From: Candidatus Daviesbacteria bacterium
Lineage (GTDB): Bacteria; Patescibacteriota; Microgenomatia; Daviesbacterales; UBA10151
DNA length: 64,000 nucleotides
Assembly: GCA_016184225.1 (NCBI GenBank)
Contig: JACPDA010000005.1
Location: 67,590 to 131,589 of the forward strand
Direction: 5' to 3'
Each line of letters opens with the position of its first letter. Position 1 is the stretch's first letter. Below are positions 2-44,099 of the stretch, one piece after another. The position numbers and the translations under genes were made by a program. The notes below the pieces were generated by a model, which was given only the letters and a program-made list of their open reading frames with translations, was not told the DNA's origin and did no database searches.

Positions 2-877
2 AAAGATTGGAAAATAGATTTTGAGGAGTTGGAAACTTTGGCCAAAAAACACAAACCAAAACTAATCTGGGTAGGGACCACGGCTTATCCTTTTAAGCTG
101 GATTATAAAAAGTTTAGAAAAATTGCCGATATGGTGGATGCCACTTTGGTGGCAGATATTTCTCATATCACCGGTTTAATAATTGGCGGTGTTCATACCT
201 CGCCGGTGCCTGATGTAGATATCATTATGACAACAACGCATAAAACCTTAAGAGGCCCCAGGGGAGCGATTATTTTGGTAACCGAGCGGGGACTCGCGAG
301 GGATCCGGAAATAAAGGCAAAAATCGAAAGGGCAATAATCCCCGGCATTCAAGGAGGTCCGCATAATCACCAGACAGCAGCTATTGCGGTAAGTTTGGAA
401 GAAGCTTTGAGGCCTTCATTTAAAAAATATGCTATTGCAGTTGCCAAAAATGCAGCGGTTTTAGCTAAAGAGCTGGGGACTGTTTCAGAAACCCACTTGA
501 TACTTTTAAGTTTGACCAAATATGGATACGGGATGGGCTATCAGGCCCAATACGCGCTGGAGGAGGCGGGTATTACAGTCAATAAAAATACAATTCCCGG
601 AGAACCTGCTTCGCCTTTTTACCCTTCAGGTATTCGCCTTGGGACACCGGCATTAACTTCCAGGGGAATGAAAGAAGAAGATATGGTAAGAATTGCTGGA
701 TGGATTAAAAGAGTTTTAGAAGAAATCAAGGGGCTTGATTTGCCAAAAAAGCAAGAGGAAAGAAAAGATTTCTTAAAAGAAGTTAAAGAAAAGATCCACG
801 AAAACAAAAATTTAAAGCAAATTAGAAAAGAAGTGGAAAAATTTGCTGGAAAATTCCCCGTTCCCGGTATACAATGA
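2..877 (+). CDS. glyA: Serine hydroxymethyltransferase, C-terminal part (5' end cut by window edge)
   Basis: Translation continues from the window start in-frame. The PLP-enzyme C-terminal region (…TTTHKTLRGPRGAIIL…, HNHQTAAIAV) is typical of SHMT. Confidence 0.85.
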   Translation, partial: KDWKIDFEELETLAKKHKPKLIWVGTTAYPFKLDYKKFRKIADMVDATLVADISHITGLIIGGVHTSPVPDVDIIMTTTHKTLRGPRGAIILVTERGLARDPEIKAKIERAIIPGIQGGPHNHQTAAIAVSLEEALRPSFKKYAIAVAKNAAVLAKELGTVSETHLILLSLTKYGYGMGYQAQYALEEAGITVNKNTIPGEPASPFYPSGIRLGTPALTSRGMKEEDMVRIAGWIKRVLEEIKGLDLPKKQEERKDFLKEVKEKIHENKNLKQIRKEVEKFAGKFPVPGIQ

Positions 878-883
878 TCCTTC

Positions 884-1726
884 ATGAAAGTATCCGGTAA
901 GGTAGTTGCAGATGCTATTGCAAAAAAACTTCACGAAAAAGTAAAGAAATTAACAGTTCAACCCACCTTTGCCATAATTTTGGCTGGTAGTGATCCGGCT
1001 TCCCGAATTTATGTAAACTTTAAAATAAAGCGAGCTAATGAAATTGGAGTTAAGGTTAAATCCTTTGAATTTGCCGAAAACCAATTTGATAAGTGTGTAA
1101 AGACTATTGAGGAGCTAAATTCAGACAAAAATGTCCATGGAATGATTGTACAATACCCGATATATAAAAGTTGGAATTTTGATGAGTTAATCGGGAAAGT
1201 TGATCCTAAAAAAGATGTAGATGGGTTTAGCAAGGAGTCTCCTTACGGCAAGGCAACTGCTTTGGCTGTTTGGGAAATGCTGACGGCTTTTGCCTATTTG
1301 GAAGGTTTTTCAAAGACAGAAGATTTTCTAAGGGATAAAAAAATGGTTGTCCTTGGAAGAGGTAAAACAGCGGGAGGACCCATTAGAGAGCTTTTAGAAA
1401 AACATGGATTTGAAGTGACGGTGGTTGCCCGGGATACGGAAAATCCAAATGAAAAGATTAGAAGTTCTGATGTAGTAATTTCTGCAACCGGGGTGAAAAA
1501 TATTGTTAACGGATCAAATGTTAAAAAAGGAGCGTATATTGTAGGAGTTGGTGTAGGTAGGGAGACAGTTGAGGGAAGACATAAAATATATGGGGATATT
1601 AATGAAGAGGAAATCAGTAAAATAGCCAAGCTGTATTGTCCAACTATTGGAGGAATAGGACCTTTAACAATTGTCAGCTTGTTGGAGAATGTGATAGAAT
1701 CAGCGTATCGCTCTCTGTCATCCTGA
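884..1726 (+). CDS. folD: Bifunctional methylene-THF dehydrogenase/methenyl-THF cyclohydrolase
   Basis: 280 aa with FolD-like N-terminal and NAD(P)-binding regions (ILAGSDPASRIYV, VVLGRGKTAGGP). The last codons and the stop are supplied by a dispersed repeat copy. Confidence 0.85.
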   Translation: MKVSGKVVADAIAKKLHEKVKKLTVQPTFAIILAGSDPASRIYVNFKIKRANEIGVKVKSFEFAENQFDKCVKTIEELNSDKNVHGMIVQYPIYKSWNFDELIGKVDPKKDVDGFSKESPYGKATALAVWEMLTAFAYLEGFSKTEDFLRDKKMVVLGRGKTAGGPIRELLEKHGFEVTVVARDTENPNEKIRSSDVVISATGVKNIVNGSNVKKGAYIVGVGVGRETVEGRHKIYGDINEEEISKIAKLYCPTIGGIGPLTIVSLLENVIESAYRSLSS

Positions 1727-11039: not shown

Positions 11040-13858
11040 TACAGAAGATAAGAGTGCAAACAATTGGACAACCCAATATTAAAGTTTACCGGTTGGAAGG
11101 GATATCAGTAAAAGATGCTAAAATTCTGGCTGAAAAATTATTGTCAGAGCGAATTAATCAAAAATACACAATAAATCAGCCTATTGCCCGCGGCAAAGTT
11201 ATTGAAATCGCCTATAAACCTGGTGTGATGAATCCGGAGGTGGTATCGATAACCAAAGCTGCATCTGATTTGGGGATTAAACTTATTTCCTGCGACAGTT
11301 CCATTGAATACCTCAGTCAAAAAGTTTCCTTTAATCCTTTAACAGAACACATAATTACAGAAGAACCAAAAACTCTGATTTTAAAAGCTAAACCCGGAAA
11401 GACACAAATTATTTCTATAAGAAATTTGACTGACCAGCAGTTGTTGGATTTATCCAAAGATACGCTTTTCCTTAATTTGGAAGAGATGAAAAAAGTCCAG
11501 AAGTATTTCCAAAAAATAAAAAGAGATCCGTCAGATTTGGAGCTTGAGACTTTAGCCCAAACTTGGAGTGAGCATTCCGGCCATAAAACTTTTAAAGCGG
11601 ATTTAATAATAGACGGTAAGGAAAAAGAACCCCTGATGACTCGGCTGAAAAAGGAAGCCTTAAAACATGATAAAAATATTGTTTCTGCCTTTGTTGATAA
11701 TTCCGGTGTGATGGATTTTTACGACGGTTTTGGGATTTGCGGTAAAGTAGAAACTCATAATGCCCCTTCAGCAATCGAACCTTACGGCGGGGCCATGACT
11801 GGTTCAGGCGGAGTATTCCGGGATATTGCTGCTACTGGTAAAGGCGCAAAAAACATTGCCTCAACAGATGTCTTTTGTTTTGCTCCATTGGATTTATCAG
11901 CTAATGAATTGCCCATGGGGTGTTTGCCGCCTGAATATTTACTAAAAAGGGTTGTGGCCGGTGTCAGGGATTATGGTAATAGGATGGGAATTCCCACTAA
12001 TAATGGCTCAGTTCATTTTCACAAAGATTTCCGGGCCAAGCCTTCGGTGATTGTAGGGGCCTTTGGAATTGTTCCCAAAAAATATGCCAAAAAGGAAAAG
12101 CCAAAAGTGGAAGATCTGATAATTACAATCGGCGGCAGAACAGGTAGGGATGGAATTCATGGGGCTACATTTTCTTCCGGAGAAATGACTGAGAAAACAA
12201 TTGAAGTGCATTCTTCCGCAGTCCAAATTGGCAATGCTATTGAAGAAAAAAGGATGTTTGATGCGCTATTGGAGGCGCGTGATCAGGATTTAATAAGGTT
12301 GGTGCAGGATTGCGGCGGAGGAGGATTTTCCTCAGCAATTGGGGAAATAGGTGAGGAGTTGGGGGTCTTGATTGACCTTAAAAATGCTCCTTTAAAATAT
12401 CAGGGTTTAGCTCCTTGGGAAATTTGGATGTCAGAGTCACAAGAGCGGATGATTGTGGTTTTAGAAAAAATAAACCTGAAGAAATTTGAGGATATTTGTA
12501 AAAAGTACAATGTGGAATTTGCAGTTTTGGGAAAGTTTGATGGAAGTAAGAAATTGAATGTGACTTTTGAAGGTAAAGTAGCTGGTGATTTAGACATGCA
12601 ATTTCTTCATCATGGGTTACCAAAAAGGATTCTAATAGCAAAAAAATCAAATCGTCATTCTGGGGAGCAAAGCGACTCCAGAATCAAAAAAGGATCCTGG
12701 ACAAGCCAGGATGACAGAGTGGAACAGCCTAAGACTGAAAGAGAATGGATAAAGGTTTTAGAAAAAGTGCTAGCTCATGGAAATGTTAATTCCAAAGAAC
12801 CAATTGTTAGATTGTATGATCATTCAGTTCAAGGGACAAATGATCTGCAGTCTTATTCGGGAACTAATTTAGATGGGCCAAATGATTCACCGGTTCTCCG
12901 CCCTTTTCTTGATAAGAAGTATGGCATGGTAATTTCCCATGGATTAAATCCTGTCTTAAATAATATAGATCCGTATTGGGGGAGCATCTGGGCGGCAACA
13001 GAAGCACTCTCCAATTTTGTAGCAGTCGGAGGGAATTACAAAGAAGCTTGCTTAATTAATAATTATATTTGGCCATTTCCGGATGAGCAGTCTCTTTGGT
13101 CTTTAGATAGGTCGGTTGATGCGGTTGTAGATTTTATGAAAACTTTCAAGATTCCTGTAATTTCTGGGAAAGACAGTTTGTCCTCGTCTTACAGAAGCAA
13201 AGATGGAAAAGTAATTAAAATCCCACCTGTACTTTGTATCTCCGTTTTGGGAAAAATTCCTGATGCCGGAAAAACTGTTACTGCAGATTTTAAACGCAGT
13301 GGTTCAACAATTGTTTTAGTAGGTAAAATGGATAAGAATCTTGGAGGCTCTGTTTATTATCAAGTACTTTACCCTGAGCGAGCGGAGCAAGTCGAAGGGC
13401 CAAAAGTTGATTTGAAGATTTTGCCAAAGACTTTTGATGCAATTTGCAAAGGGATACAGACTGGTAAGATTCTATCTTCCCATGATGTTTCGGAAGGTGG
13501 CGTAATTGGGGCTATTTTTGAAATGTGTGTAGGCGGAGGAATGGGAGCGACCATTCACCTCGGAGGAGTAACTTCGTCACACCTCCGAGGTGACCGAATG
13601 GGCTCCTCGGAGGTGGAATTCTTGTTTAATGAAACAGCAGGGTGTTTTATTGTGGAGGTGGAAAATGAAAGTATGGCAAAACAACTTTTTAAGAATGTGC
13701 CATTTAGGATTTTAGGTAAAACAAAAGAAGGAAATAAAATGGAAATATATGGAAATAAGACAAGCTTGCCGCTTCGCGATAAAAAGAAATTATTTGTTGT
13801 GGATGTAAATGATTTGAAGAAAGTTTGGCAGGAACCAATGAGGAGGTTATTCCCATGA
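11036..13858 (+). CDS. purL: FGAM synthase synthetase subunit PurL with a PurS-like N-terminal domain
   Basis: The AIRS-like PurL core (HSGHKTFKA…NAPSAIEPYGGAMTG) is preceded by about 170 aa resembling the PurS / large-PurL N-terminus (YKPGVMNPEVVSITKAASDLGI). It contains an in-frame repeat-element insert (RHSGEQSDSRIKKGSWTSQDD). Confidence 0.85.
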   Translation: MIQKIRVQTIGQPNIKVYRLEGISVKDAKILAEKLLSERINQKYTINQPIARGKVIEIAYKPGVMNPEVVSITKAASDLGIKLISCDSSIEYLSQKVSFNPLTEHIITEEPKTLILKAKPGKTQIISIRNLTDQQLLDLSKDTLFLNLEEMKKVQKYFQKIKRDPSDLELETLAQTWSEHSGHKTFKADLIIDGKEKEPLMTRLKKEALKHDKNIVSAFVDNSGVMDFYDGFGICGKVETHNAPSAIEPYGGAMTGSGGVFRDIAATGKGAKNIASTDVFCFAPLDLSANELPMGCLPPEYLLKRVVAGVRDYGNRMGIPTNNGSVHFHKDFRAKPSVIVGAFGIVPKKYAKKEKPKVEDLIITIGGRTGRDGIHGATFSSGEMTEKTIEVHSSAVQIGNAIEEKRMFDALLEARDQDLIRLVQDCGGGGFSSAIGEIGEELGVLIDLKNAPLKYQGLAPWEIWMSESQERMIVVLEKINLKKFEDICKKYNVEFAVLGKFDGSKKLNVTFEGKVAGDLDMQFLHHGLPKRILIAKKSNRHSGEQSDSRIKKGSWTSQDDRVEQPKTEREWIKVLEKVLAHGNVNSKEPIVRLYDHSVQGTNDLQSYSGTNLDGPNDSPVLRPFLDKKYGMVISHGLNPVLNNIDPYWGSIWAATEALSNFVAVGGNYKEACLINNYIWPFPDEQSLWSLDRSVDAVVDFMKTFKIPVISGKDSLSSSYRSKDGKVIKIPPVLCISVLGKIPDAGKTVTADFKRSGSTIVLVGKMDKNLGGSVYYQVLYPERAEQVEGPKVDLKILPKTFDAICKGIQTGKILSSHDVSEGGVIGAIFEMCVGGGMGATIHLGGVTSSHLRGDRMGSSEVEFLFNETAGCFIVEVENESMAKQLFKNVPFRILGKTKEGNKMEIYGNKTSLPLRDKKKLFVVDVNDLKKVWQEPMRRLFP
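12654..12715. repeat. Dispersed palindromic repeat family 2 (GTCATTCTGG…GACTCCAGAATC…GATYCTGGACAAGCCAGRATGAC), in-frame in purL
   Basis: gtcattctggggagcaaagcgactccagaatcaaaaaaggatcctggacaagccaggatgac. Confidence 0.75.
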
Positions 13859-14637
13859 AGCCCAAAGTATTAGTTTTAAAAGCAGATGGGACAAATCGGG
13901 ATTACGAGATGTCATATGCTTTCAATGTTGCCGGGGGGAATCCCAAAATAGTGCATGTAAATGAACTTAGAAACGGATCTGAAAAAATGAGTGATTATCA
14001 AATCCTTGCTTTGCCCGGTGGATTTGCCTATGGGGATGATATTGTTTCCGGAAAAATCCTGGCAATAGAACTTACCTCTTTTTTAGGTCAGGAAATGAGA
14101 AAGTTTATTGACAGAAAAGATACGGCAATAATTGGAGTGTGCAACGGGTTTCAGGTTTTAGTCAGAACCGGACTTTTGCCGTTTAGAAAAATCGGGGAAA
14201 TGGATGTGACTTTAACTAACAATGATTCAGGACATTTTGAATGCCGGTGGATTAAGTTAAAAGTTAACGGTAAAAACAACAGCAAATTCCTTCAGGGAAT
14301 AGATGGAATAATGTGGCTTCCCATAGCGCATGGAGAAGGAAAATTCCTTACCGATCAGAAAACTTTAAAAGAAATAGAAAATAAAAATCTGGTAGCCTTT
14401 AGGTATGTAGATGATAATGGCAGCCCGACACAAAAGTATCCGGATAATCCGAACGGTTCCTTAAATGCCATAGTCGGGATAACAGATGAGACGGGAAGAA
14501 TTTTAGGGATGATGCCGCATCCGGAGTGTTTTATTAGAGCAGAGCAACACCCAAACTGGAGACGTGGTACAGTGAAAGTTGACGGCTTACCAATTTTTGA
14601 AAATATAGTGAAATTTGCGAAGGAGAATAAAAAATGA
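13855..14637 (+). CDS. purQ: FGAM synthase glutaminase subunit
   Basis: Class I GATase with the catalytic Cys in GVCNGFQ and an ATGA overlap with purL. Confidence 0.85.
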   Translation: MKPKVLVLKADGTNRDYEMSYAFNVAGGNPKIVHVNELRNGSEKMSDYQILALPGGFAYGDDIVSGKILAIELTSFLGQEMRKFIDRKDTAIIGVCNGFQVLVRTGLLPFRKIGEMDVTLTNNDSGHFECRWIKLKVNGKNNSKFLQGIDGIMWLPIAHGEGKFLTDQKTLKEIENKNLVAFRYVDDNGSPTQKYPDNPNGSLNAIVGITDETGRILGMMPHPECFIRAEQHPNWRRGTVKVDGLPIFENIVKFAKENKK

Positions 14638-16193
14638 TTTTATTAATTGATTTCGGATCACAGACAACACATTTAATAGCAAGAAGGGTTAGAGAACTGG
14701 GGTCAGAGGTTGAGATTGCAACTCCCGAAGTTGCCGTACAAAAAATTAGAGCAGAGGAAATACAGGGAATAATTTTATCCGGAGGGCCGGCAGCGGTTTT
14801 TGAAAAACAGTCCCCGACAGTTAACCCGGAGATTTTTGAGTTAGGTATTCCGGTTTTAGGGATTTGTTACGGACAACAATTAATGTGTCATTTATTAGGA
14901 GGAGAAGTAGTGGCTGGTAGAAAAAGAGAGTATGGACCGGCGGTAGTTAGGCAACAGGCAACAGGCGATAAGCGGAGCTTGCGACCTAGCGGTCTTAGGC
15001 CACAGTTTTTGGAAGGGATACCGGATGAGTTTACCGCTTGGATGAGTCACGGGGATCAGGTAATTAAGATACCGGAAGGGTTTGTGACATATGGCACAAC
15101 GGAGACAATACCACACGCTATTATTGCTAATGAAAAAAGAAAATTTTATGGAATTCAGTTTCATCCTGAAGTGGTCCATACCGAATTTGGGGAACAAATC
15201 CTTAAAAACTTTTTAGAAATTTGTGGAATAAAAATAAAGAAACAAGAAATTGACGGCGAGTTTGTAGAAAATCTTATTAAAAATATCAGGGATTCGCTGG
15301 GAGAGGAAAAAGCGATTTGCGCTTTGTCCGGAGGAGTTGATTCTTCTGTGGTAGCGCTTTTGGTGCACAAAGCCATCGGTAAAAATTTAACATCTGTTTA
15401 TGTTGACTCCGGATTAATGAGGGAAGGCGAGACGGAAACTCTGAGGAGTGTTTTCCAACAGCATTACAAAATGAATGTTGATATAGTTGATGCAAAAAAA
15501 GAATTTCTCAAAGCATTAAAGAAAGTTGTGGATCCGGAGCAAAAAAGAAAAGCTATTGGCAAAACTTTTATAGAAGTTTTTGATAATGTGGCAAAAAAAA
15601 TTTATGCCAAGTTTTTGGTCCAGGGAACTATTTATCCGGATGTGATAGAGTCCGCCGGCAGCAAGCACTCGCAAAAAATAAAATCACACCACAATGTTGG
15701 AGGTTTGCCGGAAGAGATGAATTTAATTTTAATTGAACCTTTAAGAAATTTTTATAAAGATGAAGTAAGAAAAATTGGTAGGATTTTAGGACTCCCTGAT
15801 GAGATTATAGAAAGGCAACCTTTTCCCGGTCCGGCCCTTGCAGTAAGAATTATTGGTGAGGTGACAGAAGAAAAGTTAGAGATTTTAAGGAAAGCAGATA
15901 AAATTGTACTAGAGGAAATAGAAAAAGCCGGGTTAGGTAAAAAACTTTGGCAATATTTTGCAGTTTTTACCGGCATTAAAACTACCGGCGTCCGGGGAGA
16001 CCAGAGGTTTTACGGTGAAACAATTGCCATCCGGGCAATTGAAGCAACCGATGCCATGAGTGCCAGCTTTGCCAAACTGCCTTATGATTTACTTGATAAA
16101 ATTTCCACCAGGATTGTCAATGAGGTTCCCGAAGTGAACCGCGTAGTTTATGACATTACCAATAAACCCCCAGCCACTATGGAATGGGAGTAG
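14634..16193 (+). CDS. guaA: GMP synthase (glutamine-hydrolysing)
   Basis: GATase domain, ATP-PPase SGGVDSSV motif and a C-terminal dimerisation domain. Confidence 0.9.
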   Translation: MILLIDFGSQTTHLIARRVRELGSEVEIATPEVAVQKIRAEEIQGIILSGGPAAVFEKQSPTVNPEIFELGIPVLGICYGQQLMCHLLGGEVVAGRKREYGPAVVRQQATGDKRSLRPSGLRPQFLEGIPDEFTAWMSHGDQVIKIPEGFVTYGTTETIPHAIIANEKRKFYGIQFHPEVVHTEFGEQILKNFLEICGIKIKKQEIDGEFVENLIKNIRDSLGEEKAICALSGGVDSSVVALLVHKAIGKNLTSVYVDSGLMREGETETLRSVFQQHYKMNVDIVDAKKEFLKALKKVVDPEQKRKAIGKTFIEVFDNVAKKIYAKFLVQGTIYPDVIESAGSKHSQKIKSHHNVGGLPEEMNLILIEPLRNFYKDEVRKIGRILGLPDEIIERQPFPGPALAVRIIGEVTEEKLEILRKADKIVLEEIEKAGLGKKLWQYFAVFTGIKTTGVRGDQRFYGETIAIRAIEATDAMSASFAKLPYDLLDKISTRIVNEVPEVNRVVYDITNKPPATMEWE

Positions 16194-16346: not shown

Positions 16347-16778
16347 ATGGGAAGATCTGAAAATAAAGGGGAACGTACACATGAAGGTAAACCTTATCAA
16401 GGTACTATGATAAGAGAATTACGTCATGGTGTAGATAAATCACTTAAAGAATTTGCAGAAGAAGTCGGAATAGTCTCTGCTTCTCTCTCTAAGATAGAAA
16501 CAAATAGAGCTAGAGCAGGAAAAGAGCTTTTATCCAAAATTGCAGACAAGGTAGGTATTCTTGGGGGTGAATTATCAAAAACACCAATACACCCCAGATT
16601 GATAGAAATACAAAGGAAACCACGACAGACTTGTAGTTTACTGAGTGTAGGAGATCAAGTTAATGAAATGGTTATGAAGGCTAATTTATTGCCAGTTCAA
16701 CTCCAGTTAGCAGAACAGTTAATTTTAGATACTAGCAGAGCCATAATTCTGAGATTAGGTGTTTCTAACAAGCCTTAA
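16347..16778 (+). CDS. XRE-family helix-turn-helix transcriptional regulator
   Basis: HTH segment (IRELRHGVDKSLKEFAEEVGIVSASLSKIETN) with a TTGCAA-17-TATACT promoter upstream. Confidence 0.55.
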   Translation: MGRSENKGERTHEGKPYQGTMIRELRHGVDKSLKEFAEEVGIVSASLSKIETNRARAGKELLSKIADKVGILGGELSKTPIHPRLIEIQRKPRQTCSLLSVGDQVNEMVMKANLLPVQLQLAEQLILDTSRAIILRLGVSNKP

Positions 16779-16781
16779 ATT

Positions 16782-18164
<1,383 letters not shown>

Positions 18165-18166
18165 TT

Positions 18167-19183
18167 ATGGGAATTATAAAATACACAATTGTTACTTTAG
18201 GTTCTCACTCCGCCCTGCAAATCCTCAAAGGGGCAAAAGATGAAGGCTTTAAAACTGGCGTAGTAGCTACTCCGGATAGATTAACACTTTATAACTCCTA
18301 CAATAATTTTATTGATGAGATTTTAGAAATAGACTCCTGGAAAAATTTCCCCAGATTAGAAAAAGAGTTACTTAAAAGAAATGCCATTATAATTCCACAC
18401 GGCTCGTTTGTGGCATACCTTGGGATGGAACAAAATAAAAATATGAAAGTGGCATATTTTGGCAATAAGAAGGTTTTGGATTGGGAAGAAAACCGCAAAA
18501 TGCAAAGAAACTGGATGGAAGAGGCTAGAGTAAAAGTTCCACACCGGTTTAAAAGGGGAGACAAAATAGACCGACCGGTAATTGTTAAATCATATGGGGC
18601 TTCCGGTGGCAAAGGTTATTTTACTGCCAGAAACCAAAAAGAATTCGACGAAAAGTTAAAAGGTTACAATGAAGAACGATTTATGGTTCAAGAATATGTT
18701 ATTGGGGTGCCGCTCTATTTCCACTTTTTCTATTCGCCTTTGACCAAAAAAGTAGAATTAATGAGTGTTGATAAACGTTATGAAACAAATGTTGACTCAT
18801 TAGGCCGAATTCCGGCTAAAAATCAAAAAGGATTAAATATTGAACCGTCATTTGAGGTGGTGGCAAACATTCCATTGGCTGTTAGGGAGTCTATGATGGC
18901 GGAAGCAGTAGCAATGGCAGAGAGGGTGGTAAAAGCTTCTCAAAAACTTATACCAAGCAAAGGGCTTTTTGGTCCGTTTTGTTTGGAGACAATTATTACC
19001 TCATCTGAGGAAATTTATGTGATAGAAATCTCGGCCAGAATTGTAGCCGGGACAAATTGTTTTATAAATGGATCTCCTTATACTTACTTAAATTATGATG
19101 AACCAATGTCAACAGGAAGACGTATTGCCAGGGAGATAAAGAATGCAATAAACGCAAAGAAGCTTAAGGAGGTGCTGGATTGA
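18167..19183 (+). CDS. purP: FAICAR synthetase, archaeal type (PurP, ATP-grasp, formate-dependent)
   Basis: Strong resemblance to archaeal PurP (…TLGSHSALQILKGAK, IIPHGSFVAYLG, SGGKGYF, FFYSP…VELMSVDKRYETN). Confidence 0.8.
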   Translation: MGIIKYTIVTLGSHSALQILKGAKDEGFKTGVVATPDRLTLYNSYNNFIDEILEIDSWKNFPRLEKELLKRNAIIIPHGSFVAYLGMEQNKNMKVAYFGNKKVLDWEENRKMQRNWMEEARVKVPHRFKRGDKIDRPVIVKSYGASGGKGYFTARNQKEFDEKLKGYNEERFMVQEYVIGVPLYFHFFYSPLTKKVELMSVDKRYETNVDSLGRIPAKNQKGLNIEPSFEVVANIPLAVRESMMAEAVAMAERVVKASQKLIPSKGLFGPFCLETIITSSEEIYVIEISARIVAGTNCFINGSPYTYLNYDEPMSTGRRIAREIKNAINAKKLKEVLD

Positions 19184-20271
19184 AAAATAAACAATATACC
19201 ATTGCTGTTTTAGGTTCTCATTCTGCTTTAGATGTATGCCGTGGGGCTAAGGATTTAGGATTTAAGACACTAGTTATTTGTAAGAAGGGTAGAGAAAAAA
19301 CATACAAAGATTATTTTGCATCTGAAGGGGAACTGGGTTGTGTAGATGAAGTGATTGTGTTGGATGAATTCAAGGATATATTAAGCGAGAAAGTCCAGCA
19401 AGAACTTCTTAAGAGAAATTGTATTTTTATTCCACACAGATCTTTTGAAGTTTACATAAATGACTATAATGCGATTGAGAAAAAGTTTAAGGTGCCGATG
19501 TTCGGCAACAGGTTTTTGCTTAAAGCGGAAGAGCGGGGAGTGAAACCAAACCAGTATGATCTGCTCGACGCTGCCAAGATTCGTTACCCAAAGCAGTATA
19601 AGGATCCCAAGGAAATAGATAGACTTTGTATCGTTAAAGTGTTGGAAAAAGAACGCGGTTTTGAAAGGGCATTTTTCTTGGCCGAAAATTATGAGGACTT
19701 TGTTATGCATGCATCAAATGCAATTTCAGCTAATAGAATTACAAAACAACAATTAGAAAAAGCTGTCATTGAGGAGTTTATTTTTGGGGTGCAAGTTAAT
19801 TTTAATTTCTTTTATGACCCTATTAATAATAGGTTAGAATTAATTGGAACAGATACTAGAAGGCAAACAAATATTGAAGGGCTTATTAAAACTCCCGCTC
19901 CTTACCAGCAATCTATTATGGCAAGAACGCAGATCAAATATGAGGAAGCAGGTCATATTGCCGTTACAGTTTTGGAGTCTATGCTTGAGGATGCATTTGC
20001 CATAGGGGAAAGATTTGTTGAAGCTACTCAGAAGTTGTTTAAACCAGGAGTCATTGGGCCGTTTGGTTTACAAACAGTTATAACCGCCGGCCCGCCCAAA
20101 AAAGAGATTATTGTTTTTGATGTTTCCCCGAGAATGCCGGGATCTCCCGGGATATTGGCCACACCTTACAGTGGATATTTATATGGACAAAATATTTCTA
20201 TGGGAAAAAGAGTAGCCATGGAGATTAAGGAAGCGATTGAAAGAGGTCAGCTGGAAAGGATATTAACTTAA
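19180..20271 (+). CDS. purP: Second PurP-like paralog (FAICAR synthetase family)
   Basis: Same family as the upstream gene (LGSHSALDVCRGAK, FIPHRSF, NFFYDP…ELIGTDTRRQTN), in tandem with a 4-nt overlap. Confidence 0.75.
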   Translation: MKNKQYTIAVLGSHSALDVCRGAKDLGFKTLVICKKGREKTYKDYFASEGELGCVDEVIVLDEFKDILSEKVQQELLKRNCIFIPHRSFEVYINDYNAIEKKFKVPMFGNRFLLKAEERGVKPNQYDLLDAAKIRYPKQYKDPKEIDRLCIVKVLEKERGFERAFFLAENYEDFVMHASNAISANRITKQQLEKAVIEEFIFGVQVNFNFFYDPINNRLELIGTDTRRQTNIEGLIKTPAPYQQSIMARTQIKYEEAGHIAVTVLESMLEDAFAIGERFVEATQKLFKPGVIGPFGLQTVITAGPPKKEIIVFDVSPRMPGSPGILATPYSGYLYGQNISMGKRVAMEIKEAIERGQLERILT

Positions 20272-20272
20272 T

Positions 20273-21802
20273 ATGGAAAAATATGCCTTACTCTCGGTAT
20301 ATAATAAGGAAGGTATATCTGACTTTGCAAAGGTATTAGAGAAGTTGGGATACAAAATTATCTCCACTGGCGGTACTTATGAACAGTTAAAAAAGAACGG
20401 TATTGATGTTACCCCAATTGATGAGATAACCGGTAACCCCAGAGACTCCTTTGACGGCCGGATGAAAACTATTAGTTTTCAAATTGAGTCGGGAATTTTG
20501 TTTGACCGGAGAAATCCTAAGCATGTAGAAGAGGCCCAAAAATTGGGGGTACCGCAAATAAACATTGTGATATGCAACCTTTATCCGTTTGAAGAAAAGC
20601 CTGGCATTGAAACAATCGATGTCGGAGGGCCAACCATGATTAGGGCTGCAGCTAAAAATCATGTAAATGTTTTGGTGGTGGTTAGTCCTGCTGATTATGG
20701 TATGGTGGCAGATGCTTTAGAAAAGGGGAAAGTTACAGAAAAATTAAGGAAAGAATTGGCTGCTAAAGCTTTTTATCATCTATCTTTTTACGATTCTCAA
20801 ATCGGTAACTTTTTCAGTAGCGAGAGGTTTCCCAAAGAACTCACTATACCTCTTAGAAAAACTAATGTTCTCCGCTATGGGGAAAATCCCCATCAAGAAG
20901 GAGCCCTCTATCTTATGCCAAAAACCAATTCTCCTTTTGCAAAATTAAAACACCTTTGGGGAAGGGAACTTTCCGGCACCAACATTGGTGATATTCAAGC
21001 AGGACTGGAAACTGTCAGACAATTTAAGGAACCGGCAGCCGCAGTTATAAAACATTTAAGCCCTTGCGGAATAGCTACCGGCAAAGATGCTTTCGAGGCT
21101 CTGTACCGGGCAACCGAAGCAGACCCTGTTTCCGCATTTGGAGGGGTAGTGGTATTAAATAAGCCCATGGATTTAGAGGCTGCAAAGAATATTGCCACGT
21201 TTAAAAATGAAAGAGAAGGAAATACTGATATTGTGGCAGTTCCATCAATTTCGCCTGATGCTTTGGAATTACTGAAAAAAGTCAGAAAGAGTATGGGAGT
21301 TTATACATTTGGTGAAATTCCAAGGGAAAGAACTGAAAGATGGGACTTAAAATATTTTGCCGGAGCAGTATTACTTCAGGATTTTGATGATGATGTTGAC
21401 AAAAGTTTTAAGGCCTGGAAAGTTGTAACTAGAAATAAACCGACAGAGAAACAACTTGAGCAAATGAAATTTGGTTTTAAAGCAGTGAAAGCTGTCAGGT
21501 CTAATGCCGTGATAGTAATTGATAAAGATATTCCGATGACCCGCGGGATTGGTTCCGGACAAACTTCACGCGTAGGTGCTACCAAGATTGCCCTGGAGCA
21601 AGCAGGAAAATTAGCAAAAGGTGGTATCCTAATAAGTGACAGCTTTTTTCCGTTTGAAGATTCAGTGGAAATGGCAGCAAAATACGGAATCGGAGCCATT
21701 CTGGAGCAAGGGGGTTCTGTTAATGATCAGGCATCTGTGACGGCCGCAGATAAGGCAGGTATCCCGATGGTATTTACCGGAAGGAGGGCATTCAGACACT
21801 AA
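20273..21802 (+). CDS. purH: Bifunctional AICAR transformylase / IMP cyclohydrolase
   Basis: MGS-like N-domain (ALLSVYNKEGI) plus an AICARFT C-domain, about 509 aa. Confidence 0.85.
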   Translation: MEKYALLSVYNKEGISDFAKVLEKLGYKIISTGGTYEQLKKNGIDVTPIDEITGNPRDSFDGRMKTISFQIESGILFDRRNPKHVEEAQKLGVPQINIVICNLYPFEEKPGIETIDVGGPTMIRAAAKNHVNVLVVVSPADYGMVADALEKGKVTEKLRKELAAKAFYHLSFYDSQIGNFFSSERFPKELTIPLRKTNVLRYGENPHQEGALYLMPKTNSPFAKLKHLWGRELSGTNIGDIQAGLETVRQFKEPAAAVIKHLSPCGIATGKDAFEALYRATEADPVSAFGGVVVLNKPMDLEAAKNIATFKNEREGNTDIVAVPSISPDALELLKKVRKSMGVYTFGEIPRERTERWDLKYFAGAVLLQDFDDDVDKSFKAWKVVTRNKPTEKQLEQMKFGFKAVKAVRSNAVIVIDKDIPMTRGIGSGQTSRVGATKIALEQAGKLAKGGILISDSFFPFEDSVEMAAKYGIGAILEQGGSVNDQASVTAADKAGIPMVFTGRRAFRH

Positions 21803-23214
21803 TGAAAGTGCAAAGTGCAAAGTGCAAAGTGCAAAGTTATGATAGTTACCAATCACCATTTTCTTGGAGATATGGATCAGAAAAAATGAGAGAGATATTC
21901 TCAGAAGAGAAGAAATATAAACTTTGGAGAAAGATTTGGGTAGCTCTTGCAAAAGCACAAGCAAAAGAAGGTTTGGTATCAAAAGAAGAACTGGCAGACC
22001 TGGAAAAAAATCAAGACAACATAGATATCGAACGGATTTGGGAAATTGAAAAAGATACCTGGCATGACACCGTAGCGGCAATAAAAGAATTTGCTGAGAA
22101 AGCCAAAATCGGCGGCGGCAAAATACACCTCGGTGCCACTTCCATGGATATTTCCGATAATGCTGAAACTATTAGGATTAGGGAAGCCTTGGATATAGTT
22201 GAAAAAAGACTCGTAGCTTTGCTACTCGCGCTTTCTTCGAAAGTAAAAAAATATGCTAACTTTCCCTGTATGGGGTATACCCATCTGCAGCCGGCAGAAC
22301 CAACAACCTTAGGATATAGATTTGCTTTCTACGCCCAGGATCTTTTAATGGATCTGGAACTTTTAAGATTTGTTAAGAAGAATTTAAAGAGTAAAGGTTT
22401 AAAGGGCGCAGTCGGAACATCAGCCAGTTATGTTAAATTGTTGGATAGGAAAAAAGCAGAAGAGATGGAAGTTAGGATTTTAAGGGAGTTAGGGGTAGAA
22501 GCATTTGAAATTACCAATCAAACTGCGTCCAGAAAGATAGAATTTTGGGTAGCCAGCTTACTCGCGGGAGTTGCACAGTCCTTGAATAAATTTGCCTTTG
22601 ATTTAAGGATTATGCAGTCACCCGGGTTTGGTGAATGGCAGGAGCCGTTTGGAGTTTTGCAGGTTGGTTCATCCGCAATGCCTTTTAAGAAAAATCCTAT
22701 TAAAGCAGAACAAATTTGTTCTTTGTCCAGGCTGGTGGTGAATTTATCAAAGACTGCCTGGGATAATGCTTCCATGATGTTACTTGAGCGGACTCTGGAT
22801 GATTCGGCTAACAGAAGAGTAGTAATTCCGGAAATGTTTTTGGCAATTGATGAAATGCTAAATTCTACCGCAAATATTGTTGAAGGATTAATTGTAAATG
22901 ACAAACAAATAATGAGAAATTTGGAAAAATATTGGCCTTTTTCTGCAACAGAAGGAATTATTCTGGAAGCAGTAAAACAGGGGGCAGACAGACAAAAAAT
23001 GCATGAGGCGCTCAGAGAAATTGCCATGAGAGCGTGGAAGTCTATCCAAGAAGGGAATCCAAATCCAATACAGGATTTATTAGAAGAAAATTCCACTATT
23101 AAACAGTACTTAAAACCAATAGAAATAATAGAAGTTCTGGATGCAAAAAATCATGTTGGTAATGCAAAAGAAAAAGCTTTGACTTTGGCGGATCAAATTG
23201 ATAGATTGACATAA
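21802..23214 (+). CDS. purB: Adenylosuccinate lyase
   Basis: Fumarate-lyase family with a PurB N-terminus (SWRYGSEKMREIF). The first codons are a heptanucleotide tandem repeat (MKVQSAKCKVQS). Confidence 0.85.
   Translation: MKVQSAKCKVQSYDSYQSPFSWRYGSEKMREIFSEEKKYKLWRKIWVALAKAQAKEGLVSKEELADLEKNQDNIDIERIWEIEKDTWHDTVAAIKEFAEKAKIGGGKIHLGATSMDISDNAETIRIREALDIVEKRLVALLLALSSKVKKYANFPCMGYTHLQPAEPTTLGYRFAFYAQDLLMDLELLRFVKKNLKSKGLKGAVGTSASYVKLLDRKKAEEMEVRILRELGVEAFEITNQTASRKIEFWVASLLAGVAQSLNKFAFDLRIMQSPGFGEWQEPFGVLQVGSSAMPFKKNPIKAEQICSLSRLVVNLSKTAWDNASMMLLERTLDDSANRRVVIPEMFLAIDEMLNSTANIVEGLIVNDKQIMRNLEKYWPFSATEGIILEAVKQGADRQKMHEALREIAMRAWKSIQEGNPNPIQDLLEENSTIKQYLKPIEIIEVLDAKNHVGNAKEKALTLADQIDRLT
21804..21838 (+). 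repeat. Heptanucleotide tandem repeat (CAAAGTG x about 5) within the first codons of purB
   Basis: gaaagtgcaaagtgcaaagtgcaaagtgcaaagtt. Confidence 0.8.
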
Positions 23215-23389: not shown

Positions 23390-23881
23390 ATGAAAGTCCT
23401 GATTATTACAGGTTCTGATTCTGATTTATCTGTTATGAAAGAGGCTGCAGAGGTGCTGGAAGAATTTGGTGTAGAGTATGAAATGACTATTTCTTCGGCA
23501 CACAGATCTCCCGAGAGAACTAAAGAATTAGTGGAAAAGGCCAAGAGGGATGGGGTAAAGGTGATAATTGCCGGAGCGGGGATGGCTGCTCATCTAGCAG
23601 GGGCGGTAGCAGCAGATTTTCCGTTACCGGTGATTGGAGTACCACTACAAAGCGGGATATTAAAGGGGATGGATGCATTTCTGTCAACCATACAAATGCC
23701 ACCGGGAGTGCCGGTAGCAACAGTGGCCATCAACGGGGCAAAAAATGCCGGACTGCTAGCAGTGCAAATTTTGGCAATCTCTGATAAACAGTTAGAGCAG
23801 AGATTGATGGACTATAAAAAAAAATTGGCAAATGATATTTGGAAGAAGTCAGAAAAGTTAAGAAGAATAACGAGAGCATGA
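23390..23881 (+). CDS. purE: AIR carboxylase / N5-CAIR mutase
   Basis: PurE fold (ITGSDSDLSVM…SAHRSPE…AGAGMAAHL). Confidence 0.9.
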   Translation: MKVLIITGSDSDLSVMKEAAEVLEEFGVEYEMTISSAHRSPERTKELVEKAKRDGVKVIIAGAGMAAHLAGAVAADFPLPVIGVPLQSGILKGMDAFLSTIQMPPGVPVATVAINGAKNAGLLAVQILAISDKQLEQRLMDYKKKLANDIWKKSEKLRRITRA

Positions 23882-24834
23882 TTGACAGGAAAACTATTAT
23901 TGGGAATATTCCCTTTTCTCTTAAATCCGTAAACCTCCCTAAGTTGGGTAAAAAATATCAAGGCAAAGTCCGTGATAGTTATGTACTTAACGACAAAAGA
24001 ATTATTGTCACAACTGACCGGCAATCTGCATTTGACCGTGTCCTGGGTTTCATTCCATTCAAAGGACAAGTCCTTACTAAACTTTCTGAATTTTGGTTTC
24101 AAAAAACTGCTGATATTATTCAGAATCACTTGCTTTCTGTTCCGGATCCTAATGTGATGGTGGTAAAAAACTGTCAGGTTATTCCGATTGAAATGGTGGT
24201 CCGGGGTTATATCACCGGAGTGACTGATACTTCCATTTGGGGTTCATATGAAAAAGGGGACAGGGTAATTTATGGTGTTAAATTTCCAGAAGGTTTGCAA
24301 AAAAACCAGAAACTTTCTGAGCCGGTGATTACTCCTACTACCAAAGCAGAAGCCGGCCACGATGAAAGGTTAACTGAAAAAGAAATTATCCAGAGAAAGA
24401 TTGTATCCCCGGCGATATGGAAACAGATGAAAAAAACTGCTCTGGATCTTTTTGAGCGAGGACAGGAAATTTGTGATAAGGCAGGGATAATTTTGGTGGA
24501 TACAAAATATGAATTTGGATTGGATAAACAGGGGAAGCTTATATTGGTTGATGAGATCCATACCCCTGACTCTTCAAGATACTGGATAAAAAAAACTTAT
24601 CCAGAAAGATTTAAAAAAGGCGTAGAGCCGGAAAGCTATGATAAAGAACCACTCCGGATTTGGTTTAAGGAGAGAGGTTTTACCGGTAAGGGTAAAATTC
24701 CCAAAATGCCCCCAAGTTTTATTGCCAAATTGAGCAGGCTGTATATGGGAATTTATGAAAAAATCACTGGCAAAAAATTTGTCCCTGAACTTTCAAAAAA
24801 CGTTAATCAAAGAATTATAAAGAACCTCTCCTGA
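23878..24834 (+). CDS. purC: SAICAR synthetase (long form)
   Basis: Conserved SAICAR-synthase blocks (GKVRDSY, TDRQSAFDRV); start moved to the ATG at 23878, which forms an ATGA overlap with purE. Confidence 0.85.
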   Translation: MIDRKTIIGNIPFSLKSVNLPKLGKKYQGKVRDSYVLNDKRIIVTTDRQSAFDRVLGFIPFKGQVLTKLSEFWFQKTADIIQNHLLSVPDPNVMVVKNCQVIPIEMVVRGYITGVTDTSIWGSYEKGDRVIYGVKFPEGLQKNQKLSEPVITPTTKAEAGHDERLTEKEIIQRKIVSPAIWKQMKKTALDLFERGQEICDKAGIILVDTKYEFGLDKQGKLILVDEIHTPDSSRYWIKKTYPERFKKGVEPESYDKEPLRIWFKERGFTGKGKIPKMPPSFIAKLSRLYMGIYEKITGKKFVPELSKNVNQRIIKNLS

Positions 24835-25491: not shown

Positions 25492-25576
25492 AAACGAGTA
25501 AAGTTGTGTTACCAGAATAATCAAACCGAATGATTGATATTTGACGATAACTATAAGGTATAGTATTATTTGCTGT

Positions 25577-26356
25577 ATGGTTGAGAGAATCAATTTTTCA
25601 ACAAAGGATTTGACCTTTCAATCCGTTACTAATCAACATAGTTTTGATAATTTTTCTGGTGAGCGAGTGTGGTTCAGTAAAAACAATTGGGGCGATGTCA
25701 GATTAGCGAGAGAAGGAAATTCTTCTGTTTTAAGGTGGGTTGATAACCGCATTATATGTTTAGATCCAGGATTTTCTTTCTACTATGATCATAACTACTG
25801 GGTTCAACCTTTTGGTATGGGTTTCCAACCTAAAGAATTAGCTGGTTCATATCCAGCAGTGATCAGTGCTGAGTCTGCAACCGAAGCGGAAGATGGAAGG
25901 ATAGTTGGCGCCATACAATACGGAACATTTTGGTATAACCCGGAAGGCGCTTTAACTGCCATAAGATGTGGAGGATTAACACGCGGAGGGTTTGAGATGA
26001 ATAATCCCTTTTTAGATCTGGTCAGGTTAGACCAGAGTGTGTGGCAAATCTATCGACTGGAAGACGTAACTCAATACACCTATGAGTATTTTCTTAAACA
26101 TAAAGAGAAGCTGCCAGAAGAAGTATTGTTAAAAGATGGGAAGGATATAATTTTTGATGAATTGATTACAAATATCACAGATGACGGTAAGGTTGTAACT
26201 CTTACGCAGAGTACAATTACCGGCCACAAACAAAAAGTTATCCAAGTTCCTTCGCATATAGATATTCTTAAATGGCGGGAAACTTTAGGTAAGCTTGAAG
26301 GTGCATGGGTGCAGGTCTTGAAGGATTTTCCCACGCAAATCGAACTCGTGGTATAA
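25577..26356 (+). CDS. Hypothetical cytoplasmic protein (about 260 aa)
   Basis: ORF with no recognisable motif; the track start at 25541 is also possible. Confidence 0.4.
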   Translation: MVERINFSTKDLTFQSVTNQHSFDNFSGERVWFSKNNWGDVRLAREGNSSVLRWVDNRIICLDPGFSFYYDHNYWVQPFGMGFQPKELAGSYPAVISAESATEAEDGRIVGAIQYGTFWYNPEGALTAIRCGGLTRGGFEMNNPFLDLVRLDQSVWQIYRLEDVTQYTYEYFLKHKEKLPEEVLLKDGKDIIFDELITNITDDGKVVTLTQSTITGHKQKVIQVPSHIDILKWRETLGKLEGAWVQVLKDFPTQIELVV

Positions 26357-26374: not shown

Positions 26375-27352
26375 ATGGCAACGACTAATGGTTTTGTACT
26401 TTTAACAGGGACTGCTAATTTAAAACTTGCCAAAGATATTGCTAAAGTTTTGGGAAAAGATGCTGATGAAACCGTGAGCGTTTTTGCTGACGGCGAAAAG
26501 AGAATTGTTATCCCCGAGAATTTAAGGAAAAGAGATGTTTTTATAATCCAACCCACTTGTCCGCCGGTTGATGCAAACATTATGGAACTGCTTTTGATAA
26601 TAGACGCTGCAAAAAGATCATCCGCCTCAGAAGTAACAGCCATAATTCCTTATTTTGGATACTCCAGGCAGGACCGCAAAGATCGACCGCGAGTTCCCAT
26701 ATCAGCGTCTTTGGTTGCCAGGTTAATTGAATTTTCCGGGGCAGACAGAATTTTGACGGTTGATATCCACTCGGAGCAAGAGCCCGGATTTGTGGAAATC
26801 CCTTGGGATAATTTATACAGCAGTTACTCTTTTCTTCCCCAGCTAAAAAAATATTTCGGATCAAACTTAATTGTTGCCTCGCCTGATAAAGGCGGAGTTT
26901 TAAAAGCTGCATTTTATGCGGATCTGCTTGACGCTGATGGAGTGGCGATTGTTTTTAAGGAAAGGGATGTGATGAAAAAGAATGAAAGCAAGGCTTTGGA
27001 TATGATTGGTGACGTTAAGGGCAAAGACGTATTAATTGTGGATGATATGATTGATACGGCCGGAACGATTTGTGAAGCTGCTAAATTGATTAAGGGAAAA
27101 GGGGCAAAAAGCGTATCTGCTGCTGCTGCTCATGGGCTTTTTTCCGACCCTGCCATAGAACGGATTAACGACTCACCCCTAGATAAGATTTTTATCACAG
27201 ATACAGTGCCGCTTAGGAAGGAAGTTTTGGAGAGCCAAAAGTTTATTGTAATATCAGTGGCTAACCTTTTGGCAGAAGCTATAAACTGTATTCACAATGG
27301 TGATTCAATTTCTGAAAAATTAATCCCCAAAACTCACGAAGAAAGAAACTAG
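26375..27352 (+). CDS. prs: Ribose-phosphate pyrophosphokinase
   Basis: PRPP-binding motif (VLIVDDMIDTAGT) and the Prs N-domain. Confidence 0.9.
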   Translation: MATTNGFVLLTGTANLKLAKDIAKVLGKDADETVSVFADGEKRIVIPENLRKRDVFIIQPTCPPVDANIMELLLIIDAAKRSSASEVTAIIPYFGYSRQDRKDRPRVPISASLVARLIEFSGADRILTVDIHSEQEPGFVEIPWDNLYSSYSFLPQLKKYFGSNLIVASPDKGGVLKAAFYADLLDADGVAIVFKERDVMKKNESKALDMIGDVKGKDVLIVDDMIDTAGTICEAAKLIKGKGAKSVSAAAAHGLFSDPAIERINDSPLDKIFITDTVPLRKEVLESQKFIVISVANLLAEAINCIHNGDSISEKLIPKTHEERN

Positions 27353-29447: not shown

Positions 29448-30064
29448 ATGATAAAACCGGATTTTTTTATCAGATCCTCCAATTGGTTGTGGTGGAAAGG
29501 ATGAAGATGGGCATTTCTCCATACTCTGCCCTTTGTATTTTCCCAAATAAACCACACAATTCGAAAAAGTAGGCTTCCGGAATCCATCGTCAAAATTAAA
29601 GTGCCGTTTTCCTTAAGCACTCTACGAATTTCTTTTAAACACTTATCCGGTTTTTCAACATGTTCGATTGTTTCATAAAAAAGAATTAAGTCAAAAAAGG
29701 TTTTTTTATAAGGTATCCTCTCGGCTGATGCAATTTTAAAATCTATCCCGGGATAGGTTTTCTTTGCGGAATCGATAGCCTTATCGTAGACGTCTACACC
29801 ATAATAGGAAGCGCCGGGGAATGCTTTGGCAATTTCCGAGACCATAAAACCCGAGGCACAGCCGACATCCAGGCAGTTATTAAATTCCAGATCTTTAATA
29901 ATTTTTTTGGCAAGCTTAATTTTAGTATCGTGCCAGAGCCACTGGAAGAAATTATTTTTGACTCCATTTTGATAATAATTTACCGGGACCTTGCTCCAAG
30001 TGTTATATAGCCTGTGGTTTTGCATATTTTTGGACCGTGAAGCCGCCGATAGTTTTTTCTTCAA
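29345..30064 (-). CDS. Class I SAM-dependent methyltransferase
   Basis: Motif I (LDVGCASG) and a post-I acidic residue. An alternative start near 30025 is possible. Confidence 0.7.
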   Translation of the reverse strand: MKKKLSAASRSKNMQNHRLYNTWSKVPVNYYQNGVKNNFFQWLWHDTKIKLAKKIIKDLEFNNCLDVGCASGFMVSEIAKAFPGASYYGVDVYDKAIDSAKKTYPGIDFKIASAERIPYKKTFFDLILFYETIEHVEKPDKCLKEIRRVLKENGTLILTMDSGSLLFRIVWFIWENTKGRVWRNAHLHPFHHNQLEDLIKKSGFIIQDKIFSFLGMEVTFVLSNSSKRSGPTLPPGLTL

Positions 30065-44017: not shown

Positions 44018-44097
44018 TATAGAATAGTGACTAGTCGCTAGAGTCTAGAGTCAAGTAATTATTTTCTAGACTCTAGATTCTAGACACTTGACTCTAA
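44018..44097. repeat. Intergenic repeat family 4 (ATAGTGACTAG…GAGTCAAG…TCTAGACTCTAGA…ACTCTA), copy A after rpsR
   Basis: About 80 bp, partly palindromic and rich in tctaga/gagtc. Confidence 0.6.
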
Positions 44098-44099
44098 CT

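Follow-up and report, generated by a model that had tools for sequence, protein, structure and literature searches.

PurP II- and PurP III-type genes lie together in a bacterial purine operon of Candidatus Daviesbacteria and recur across Microgenomates

A 64,000-nt stretch of Candidatus Daviesbacteria contig JACPDA010000005.1 (positions 67,590-131,589 of the forward strand; hereafter the window) carries two adjacent genes for ATP-grasp proteins of the PurP family inside a purine biosynthesis cluster. We refer to them as PurP-A, or A (open reading frame (ORF) 18167..19183, + strand, 338 aa, ATG start), and PurP-B, or B (ORF 19180..20271, + strand, 363 aa, TTG start), and number their residues as in Methanocaldococcus jannaschii PurP. 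One nucleotide after the PurP-B stop begins purH (20273..21802, + strand), which encodes a bifunctional enzyme that is both the formyltransferase for 5-aminoimidazole-4-carboxamide ribonucleotide (AICAR) and the inosine monophosphate (IMP) cyclohydrolase. The purH stop in turn overlaps by 1 nt the start of purB (adenylosuccinate lyase; 21802..23214, + strand; TIGR00928, 403 bits against a cut-off of 326), the last gene of a packed A-B-purH-purB unit. On the other side, purA (adenylosuccinate synthase; 16782..18116, − strand; NF002223, 554 bits) diverges from the PurP-A promoter region, an arrangement common to the Daviesbacteria loci whose flank extends to purA (30/36). The original prediction for this DNA described two archaeal-type purP genes immediately upstream of a full-length, two-domain purH; both ORFs proved real, at the stated coordinates, and belong to PurP-family ATP-grasp proteins along their full length by Pfam and structure alignments, and the purH behind them is complete, with its catalytic motifs intact. 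The pair has a bacterial host: records of exactly these proteins are assigned to Candidatus Daviesbacteria, which belongs to the candidate phyla radiation (CPR/Patescibacteria), and the rest of the window holds ordinary bacterial housekeeping genes (RecR, CysRS, Cmk, RF-1, HisRS, DnaB, SSB).

The 50-bp intergenic region between purA and PurP-A contains a sigma-70-type promoter, TTGACA-17 nt-TATAAT (18133..18161, + strand), the only 12/12 consensus match in the 9.4 kb from 16.2 to 25.6 kb. With a strict pattern, the same promoter box is found at an unchanged offset in 24/34 Daviesbacteria loci, and nearly all of the loci have TATAAT there. Because the promoter ends 5 nt before the PurP-A ATG, the transcript is probably leaderless or nearly so, and no Shine-Dalgarno sequence lies between promoter and ATG. 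The two PurP genes share the four nucleotides TTGA (19180-19183), in which the TGA stop of A overlaps the TTG start of B, behind a strong Shine-Dalgarno sequence read from the sequence inside the 3′ end of PurP-A (AAGGAGGTG; 19166..19174, + strand). This stop/start overlap indicates that A and B are translationally coupled, and the A-to-B spacing falls between −8 and +4 nt in about 33/78 related loci. We take A, B, purH and purB to be transcribed together from this strong, probably leaderless promoter.

Both proteins carry the Pfam domains DUF1246 and DUF1297 (E-values of 1e-41 to 1e-66 for the two together). PurP-A aligns end to end with Pyrococcus furiosus PF1517 (2r84; E 3e-104, 352 bits, 50% identity), its best solved relative, and shares 40% identity with MJ0136; a neighbour-joining tree (100 bootstraps, as for all trees here) groups it with PF1517. 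PurP-B aligns end to end with M. jannaschii PurP (2r7k; E 8.5e-64) and is 36% identical to MJ0136. An AlphaFold model of B (predicted local distance difference test (pLDDT) 82, predicted template modelling score (pTM) 0.84) superposes on M. jannaschii PurP (2R7L) with a template modelling score (TM) of 0.82, against about 0.5-0.6, and at most 0.61, for ATP-grasp enzymes of other kinds (biotin carboxylase, PurK, PurT). The closest characterised relatives of both are thus archaeal (PF1517, MJ0136), as had been predicted. NCBI names A a "formate--phosphoribosylaminoimidazolecarboxamide ligase" and B only a "DUF1297 domain-containing protein". Like PurP, the purine-pathway ligases PurT and PurK are ATP-grasp enzymes, in which ATP serves to activate formate or bicarbonate, and they are distant fold matches (TM about 0.5-0.55), but they have other N- and C-terminal domains and other substrates (glycinamide ribonucleotide (GAR) and aminoimidazole ribonucleotide (AIR)).

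Archaeal PurPs form clusters Ia (PurP I, MJ0136), Ib (PurP II, PF1517) and II (PurP III, PF0421) (PMC3261824, PMC6486802). For the roles of active-site residues we follow Brown et al. 2011 (PMC3261824), in which H27 and R314, 100% conserved in archaeal PurPs, touch the formyl group, S94 and S266 touch the AICAR 5′-phosphate, and Asn258 touches the AICAR carboxamide. The marks of cluster II are His in place of Asn258 and, at 161-165, a loop with two extra residues, many basic residues and none of the glycines of (K/R)GG(K/R)G (PMC3261824). An exhaustive HMMER search with B gave 612 clusters (50% identity, E ≤ 1e-3), and the full-length ones, aligned with A, B and three solved PurPs, separated into two clean classes. 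Class 1, which includes A, has Asn258, Glu310 and Asn320 with a 13-residue loop (GAKGGKG); class 2, which includes B, has His258, Asp310 and a residue other than Asn at position 320, with a 15-residue loop (..ERAFF).

By these published diagnostic residues PurP-A is of the PurP II (cluster Ib, PF1517-like) type. It has H27, S94, N258, S266, E310, R314, N320 and a GGKG loop; in its P-loop, SYGASGGKGYF, the first basic residue of (K/R)GG(K/R)G is replaced by Ser or Ala and GGKG is kept. Over 77 orthologues, H27 is found in 76/77, S94 in 75/77, S266 in 73/77 and R314 in 77/77, and K156, N258, E310 and S312 are invariant or nearly so. It does not qualify as PurP I, being nearer to PF1517 than to MJ0136, sharing its locus with a second PurP gene and having purH, not purO, as partner; within the locus flank it is accompanied by exactly one PurP III gene, which is adjacent. 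PF1517 (PDB 2R84-2R87) likewise has Asn258, Glu310, Arg314 and a GGKG P-loop, always occurs with a PurP III gene and often lies in pur clusters, but comes from an archaeal, hyperthermophilic host in a genus, Pyrococcus, without purH or purO, whereas A stands beside a full purH in a bacterial operon.

PurP-B, by the published marks, is of the PurP III (cluster II, PF0421) type, with His for Asn258, Asp for Glu310 and Gly for Asn320. Its loop (KVLEKERGFERAFFL) has 15 residues against 13 in A, a length constant in 81 orthologues, and lacks the glycine-rich P-loop, reading EKERGFERAFF. The motif blocks quoted for both proteins in the original prediction are all found in A (GSHSAL, KGAK, PHGSF, GGKGYF, FFYSP, DKRYETN); B keeps GSHSAL and otherwise has variants of them (RGAK, PHRSF, FFYDP, DTRRQTN, and ERGFERAFF where A has GGKGYF). 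The positions H27, S94, K156, E199, H258, S266, D310, R314 and G320 are invariant in 81/81 B orthologues. Because these residues do not vary and the length of the FERAFF loop is constant, B is a constrained protein that binds a ligand and probably catalyses a reaction, and not a decaying copy. A check of catalytic residues in each copy, as had been proposed, thus finds H27, S94, S266 and R314 in both, with Lys156 and an acidic residue at 310 invariant in both. B resembles archaeal PurP III proteins (for example PF0421, which has no solved structure) in His258, the longer loop without glycines and its single copy beside a cluster-I-type gene, and differs in being bacterial and coupled to PurP II upstream and purH downstream. 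MJ0136 (PDB 2R7K-2R7N) shares fold, domain architecture and H27, S94, S266 and R314 with both A and B. Unlike them, this PurP I is a single gene working with PurO; neither A nor B groups with it in the tree, and B lacks its P-loop and Asn258.

Relatives were collected by a pattern scan with B over 185,579 species genomes, which returned 193 species; the best 80 of the 193 loci were analysed, and every one is a Microgenomates-type locus (Daviesbacteria, Curtiss-, Levy-, Roizman-, Gottesman- and Woesebacteria). Both A and B are present wherever the flank spans both, namely in 77/80 Microgenomates loci and in three extra loci outside that set (L081, L084 and L085, giving 80 loci), and in these loci the pair always lies inside a pur operon. 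Among the three, L081 belongs to a lineage of 67% GC that a homologue search places in the Eremiobacterota (Vulcanimicrobiaceae, Baltobacteraceae, Velthaea). L084 is an archaeal contig (PolB, Pus10, split guaA) in which PurP III and PurP II are adjacent and 32% identical to each other, and L085 is a metagenomic contig with a purT-containing operon and an adjacent pair. At least two bacterial phyla carry the pair, in contrast with the statement from a 2019 survey of 1,403 complete genomes that PurP occurs only in Archaea (PMC6486802), and the arrangement is not peculiar to this genome. We found no paper linking PurP with CPR bacteria in the literature searched.

Operon layout varies among lineages. 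In the Daviesbacteria loci (L001-L036) purH directly follows B, as in the window, while in Levybacteria-like loci a full-length purH about 40% identical to that of the window lies between A and B; L042 has purH upstream of purN-purD, probably like L079 (partial purH at the locus edge). A further 34/80 loci, among them Roizman-, Gottesman-, Woese- and Curtissbacteria, lack purH within ±10 kb of the locus, the neighbourhood to which statements on purH presence refer. These 34 purH-less operons encode every other purine step, and their recurrent neighbours include a genuine purK (ATP-grasp plus PurK_C), which recurs in 8 of them and stands alongside A and B in Roizman- and Woesebacteria operons (L072, L076). 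Neither PurO/PurJ nor any other known IMP cyclohydrolase is found among their recurrent neighbours, for which 25 of 171 families were listed, a list that does not fully exclude ORFs confined to a single locus. In Curtissbacteria a purA-like gene separates A from B.

Several features of individual loci deserve mention. In the Eremiobacterota locus (L081, 7332-11363), which has no purH within ±10 kb, a 383-aa ORF, considered as a candidate cyclohydrolase, lies between the PurP genes; it has no known family, is absent from CPR loci and has an N-terminus resembling a signal peptide. A further ORF ahead of the PurP genes, 154 aa long, may encode a divergent PurS. In L073 (4122-5405), an ORF near the purine operon combines a HAD hydrolase, a PurK-type pre-ATP-grasp domain and a partial ATP-grasp domain, and recurs in 5 loci. 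L062, titled Candidatus Limnocylindrales, and many records titled "uncultured Gammaproteobacteria" disagree with their own Levybacteria/Daviesbacteria-type gene content and synteny, and these titles are likely placeholders or reflect mis-binning. Two candidate fusions were set aside: P0381, apparently joining PurP III to PurP II, comes from a frameshift-ridden long-read contig, and the 292 extra N-terminal residues of P0387 match no family and seem to reflect a spurious lengthening of the ORF upstream.

PurH of the window scores 528 bits with NF002049 (cut-off 402) and has both its MGS/IMP cyclohydrolase (IMPCH) and AICAR formyltransferase (AICARFT) domains. The motifs IKHLSPCGIA (with the Lys-His dyad), GENPHQ, FFPF, NLYPF, IDVGGP and AAAKN, whose assignment to catalysis follows ATIC/PurH structures, are all present and are kept in 45/45 orthologues. 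Since all 45 retain them, the folate-dependent PurH route is, judging from these sequences, also under selection, and no decay of the AICARFT domain is seen, given the same motifs and its 79% conservation. The window PurH and all 45 Microgenomates PurH carry the IMPCH motif GR(M/V/I)KTISFQ, where two aligned bacterial PurH structures have GRVKTLHPR. Compared with the window PurH, the Levybacteria-type purH (L038, L056, L057, L058, L062, L064, L067 and L077) is 57% identical in IMPCH and 33% in AICARFT; it keeps all catalytic motifs, and the imbalance suggests that a domain was replaced, that the gene was acquired separately or that rates were strongly unequal.

Among Daviesbacteria, median identity is highest in the cluster for A (85%); it is 79% for the purH AICARFT domain, 76% for B, 75% each for the purH IMPCH domain and purC, and 73% for purB. 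Across the wider Microgenomates, A (59%), B (65%) and purC (60%) are the best-conserved cluster genes. Microgenomates are monophyletic in both PurP subtrees (bootstrap 71% for B, 14% for A), and Eremiobacterota adjoin them in both. The simplest reading is that the pair was acquired from archaea before the Microgenomates radiation, because the family is broad in archaea, its bacterial spread as seen here is limited to two phyla and its composition is fully ameliorated. Horizontal acquisition, as first suggested, is thus plausible from taxonomic distribution; the trees do not show it, and with such weak neighbour-joining support the donor lineage cannot be named.

The function of such pairs has to be read against what is known from archaea, where MJ0136 is the only PurP with demonstrated formyl-AICAR (FAICAR) synthetase activity (PMC3261824, PMC6486802). 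Clusters Ib and II occur in the same genomes, often adjacent (PMC3261824), and PurP II and PurP III are found in the same 61 archaeal taxa (PMC6486802). PF1517 and PF0421 each showed no AICAR formyltransferase activity alone in vitro, although PF1517 binds ATP and AICAR (PMC3261824, PMC6486802), which fits a need for both proteins, and Cruz et al. speculated that PurP II and III form a heterohexamer (PMC6486802). They also cite Zhang et al. for the suggestion that PurP III might be without activity or have a distinct one (PMC6486802). Ten archaeal taxa have PurP II, PurP III and purH together (PMC6486802), so PurP, which the original prediction called characteristic of archaea that lack PurH transformylase activity, is not confined to organisms without PurH.

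A and B are bacterial orthologues of archaeal PurP II and PurP III, respectively, and we consider it moderately probable that together they provide an ATP- and formate-dependent formylation of AICAR parallel to PurH. By homology to MJ0136, the reaction would consist of ATP-grasp activation of formate followed by formylation of the AICAR 5-amino group to give FAICAR, with A as the putative PurP-II-type ligase and B as a partner that A would need and whose active site is complete though modified. The IMPCH domain of PurH would then close the ring, and its AICARFT domain would supply a parallel route dependent on 10-formyl-tetrahydrofolate (THF). PurH serves the same pathway steps as the pair (9 and 10) from the same operon, but its fold is unrelated and it draws on 10-formyl-THF in place of formate and ATP. 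The strict II/III co-occurrence, the coupling seen here, the inactivity of the archaeal proteins alone and the formate and AICAR-phosphate residues kept in both suggest that A and B serve one and the same step, or steps, and probably depend on each other; a physical A-B complex may also exist. The window contains no formate-producing gene, and the presence of purN, folD and glyA indicates that the organism uses folate-bound one-carbon (C1) units.

A number of observations weigh against this interpretation. Both the activity and an A-B complex are predictions, and both proteins fall below the NCBIfam equivalog cut-offs (A, 404 against 580 bits for NF009779; B, 287 against 556 bits for NF009780), which places both, as family members, outside the curated archaeal equivalogs. 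The full catalytic-type residue set of B suggests an enzyme in its own right and not a mere partner, and PF1517 crystallised as a homohexamer (PMC6486802). The purH or purA-like gene found between A and B in some lineages implies that strict adjacency is not required. A mirror-tree comparison gave no specific A-B signal (partial r 0.46, against 0.44 for A-purB, 0.53 for A-purE and 0.86 for the PurL-PurQ control), and since A-B does not rise above the operon background, a tight complex is not supported by that test. With an intact and well-conserved AICARFT domain (79%) in the same operon, the PurP route is moreover not obviously needed here.

The broader idea that PurP II and III form a two-protein, folate-independent replacement of both PurH activities, with PurP III either activating PurP II or closing the ring to IMP, is one we raise tentatively and regard as rather improbable. 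A sequential version, in which A alone would make FAICAR and B would be the missing IMP cyclohydrolase (or the pair would be bifunctional), so that Daviesbacteria would have two AICAR-to-IMP routes, seems to us unlikely, and it has points on both sides. All 24 archaeal taxa with PurP I as their only PurP have PurO, whereas 37/60 PurP II/III taxa without PurP I have no known IMP cyclohydrolase (PMC6486802; Fisher p = 4e-8, uncorrected for phylogeny), the cyclohydrolase was still unidentified in 2019 in Crenarchaeota and some Thermococcales (PMC6797443), and Brown et al. raised the same idea while noting that it had "not yielded to experimental testing" (PMC3261824). The bacteria repeat the pattern in the 34/80 Microgenomates operons that encode all but ring closure and have no recurrent PurO/PurJ-type neighbour, although purH could lie elsewhere in those genomes, beyond the ±10 kb covered. 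B keeps the formyl and phosphate contacts, loses the glycine-rich ATP loop and places His where Asn258 touches the carboxamide, the ring-closure nucleophile, changes that would suit a protein handling FAICAR and not ATP; yet it also keeps the ATP-grasp residues Lys156 and Glu199 and Asp310 at the metal-ligand position, which a cyclohydrolase would not need. The sequential version requires no special A-B co-evolution signal, but leaves the inactivity of PF1517 alone unexplained, and many PurP II/III organisms, this window included, also have PurO, PurJ or PurH. We are somewhat more doubtful of another reading, by which B would catalyse a different ATP-grasp ligation in or near purine metabolism, with another acyl or C1 donor or another aminoimidazole ribonucleotide, and would be tied to A by pathway only. 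The active site of B is conserved but systematically altered across the aligned PurP III (N258H, E310D, N320G and a new loop), B is always in a purine operon, and Zhang et al., as cited by Cruz et al., allow PurP III a distinct activity (PMC6486802). On the other side, an unrelated step would hardly explain why B strictly accompanies PurP II, one to one, in 61 archaeal taxa and all bacterial loci spanning both, all canonical purine steps except purK are already assigned to other genes in the window, and B retains its formyl-group and AICAR-phosphate residues.

That one copy formylates another substrate, as had been suggested, may hold for B, but one specific form of this idea, B standing in for a missing PurK (N5-carboxyaminoimidazole ribonucleotide (N5-CAIR) synthetase) and using bicarbonate and AIR, was tested and is most improbable. 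The purine cluster of the window has no purK, although purE is present, and PurK is an ATP-grasp enzyme acting on an aminoimidazole ribonucleotide and is among the distant fold matches of B; a Pfam scan, however, found neither PurK_C nor PF02222 in B, and the genuine purK beside A and B in Roizmanbacteria and Woesebacteria operons rules the substitution out. Most Crenarchaeota, too, carry purK and PurP-like proteins of cluster Ib and, by the one-to-one rule, cluster II; both PurP classes are present in the Sulfolobales, and purK of Sulfolobus solfataricus is proven functional (PMC3261824). Nor do we give more than slight credence to the idea that a single acquired purP was recently duplicated in tandem, the copies then becoming redundant or sub-functionalised in this lineage, which the adjacency of A and B on the same strand might suggest and which the original prediction implied in speaking of tandem genes and of paralogs. 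The two are only 35% identical, whereas identity is 50% between A and PF1517 and 47% between B and the archaeal PurP III of L084, each being nearer to a different archaeal class than to its neighbour; their class signatures are shared with archaea, and the archaeal pair is equally divergent (32%). Low identity and class signatures together exclude a local duplication and leave two ancient archaeal classes side by side. Finally, the intactness of PurH would allow the PurP genes to be relics or assembly contamination while PurH does all the work, which we find scarcely credible. Few proteins of the operon are as well conserved as A and B, which also have their own strong, conserved promoter, and the arrangement is found in 36 independently assembled Daviesbacteria loci. 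The GC and GC3 of both genes equal those of neighbouring genes, as expected of long-resident genes, and contamination or misassembly is ruled out by this composition together with the recurrence of the arrangement. The shared formylation of AICAR by A and B thus remains the explanation that we favour.

The purine cluster extends well beyond the PurP unit. Upstream, all on the + strand, lie the folate one-carbon genes glyA (cut by the window start) and folD (29..1726), purF (7754-9172), a purN-purD fusion in one ORF (about 9140-11039; Formyl_trans_N plus GARS_N/A/C), a probable purS-purL fusion (11036-13858; PurL of 940 aa, whose N-terminal extension has a weak PurS match), purQ (13825-14637) and guaA (14634-16193). 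The listed start of purN-purD at 9057 overlaps purF, and the true start is probably further downstream; in several other Microgenomates loci purN and purD match separately by tblastn and may be separate genes. Between guaA and purA lies a gene for a 143-aa XRE-type helix-turn-helix protein (16347-16778), which was not detected by tblastn in the 80 related loci and may be a lineage-specific insertion or a regulator. Downstream of purB follow purE (23390-23881, +), purC (23839-24834, +), prs (26375-27352, +) and the divergent purM (27375-28478, −). This purM scores 185 bits against the TIGR00878 cut-off of 236 and is the least conserved gene of the cluster (Daviesbacteria median 51%); its identities fall into two groups, at about 48% and about 72%, and so suggest that there are two lineages of purM. 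Elsewhere in the window, ORFs of 226-518 aa without a Pfam or NCBIfam match lie at 25541-26356, 30003-31559 (−), 38978-40378, 41569-42693 and 44088-45907, and the sole Rfam match is a tRNA gene (58819-58902, −).

PurP has hitherto been treated as an archaeal signature; in a whole class of CPR bacteria the pair now proves to be a core and strongly conserved element of the purine operon, and Eremiobacterota have it as well. At least some CPR lineages retain the whole de novo purine pathway, and in it AICAR formylation could bypass folate, while GAR formylation still depends on folate via PurN; such a bypass bears on the host dependence of these small-genome organisms. For the old question of what PurP II and III do, mesophilic bacterial orthologues and operon variants with purH after the pair, between its members or not nearby offer a convenient handle. 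Should the pair indeed replace both PurH activities, the IMP cyclohydrolase of Crenarchaeota and some Thermococcales, regarded as "missing" since at least 2011, would have been identified, and the Microgenomates operons with genes for all purine steps but ring closure would be accounted for. In that case Daviesbacteria would possess two complete, independently selected routes from AICAR to IMP, one drawing on formate and the other on folate.

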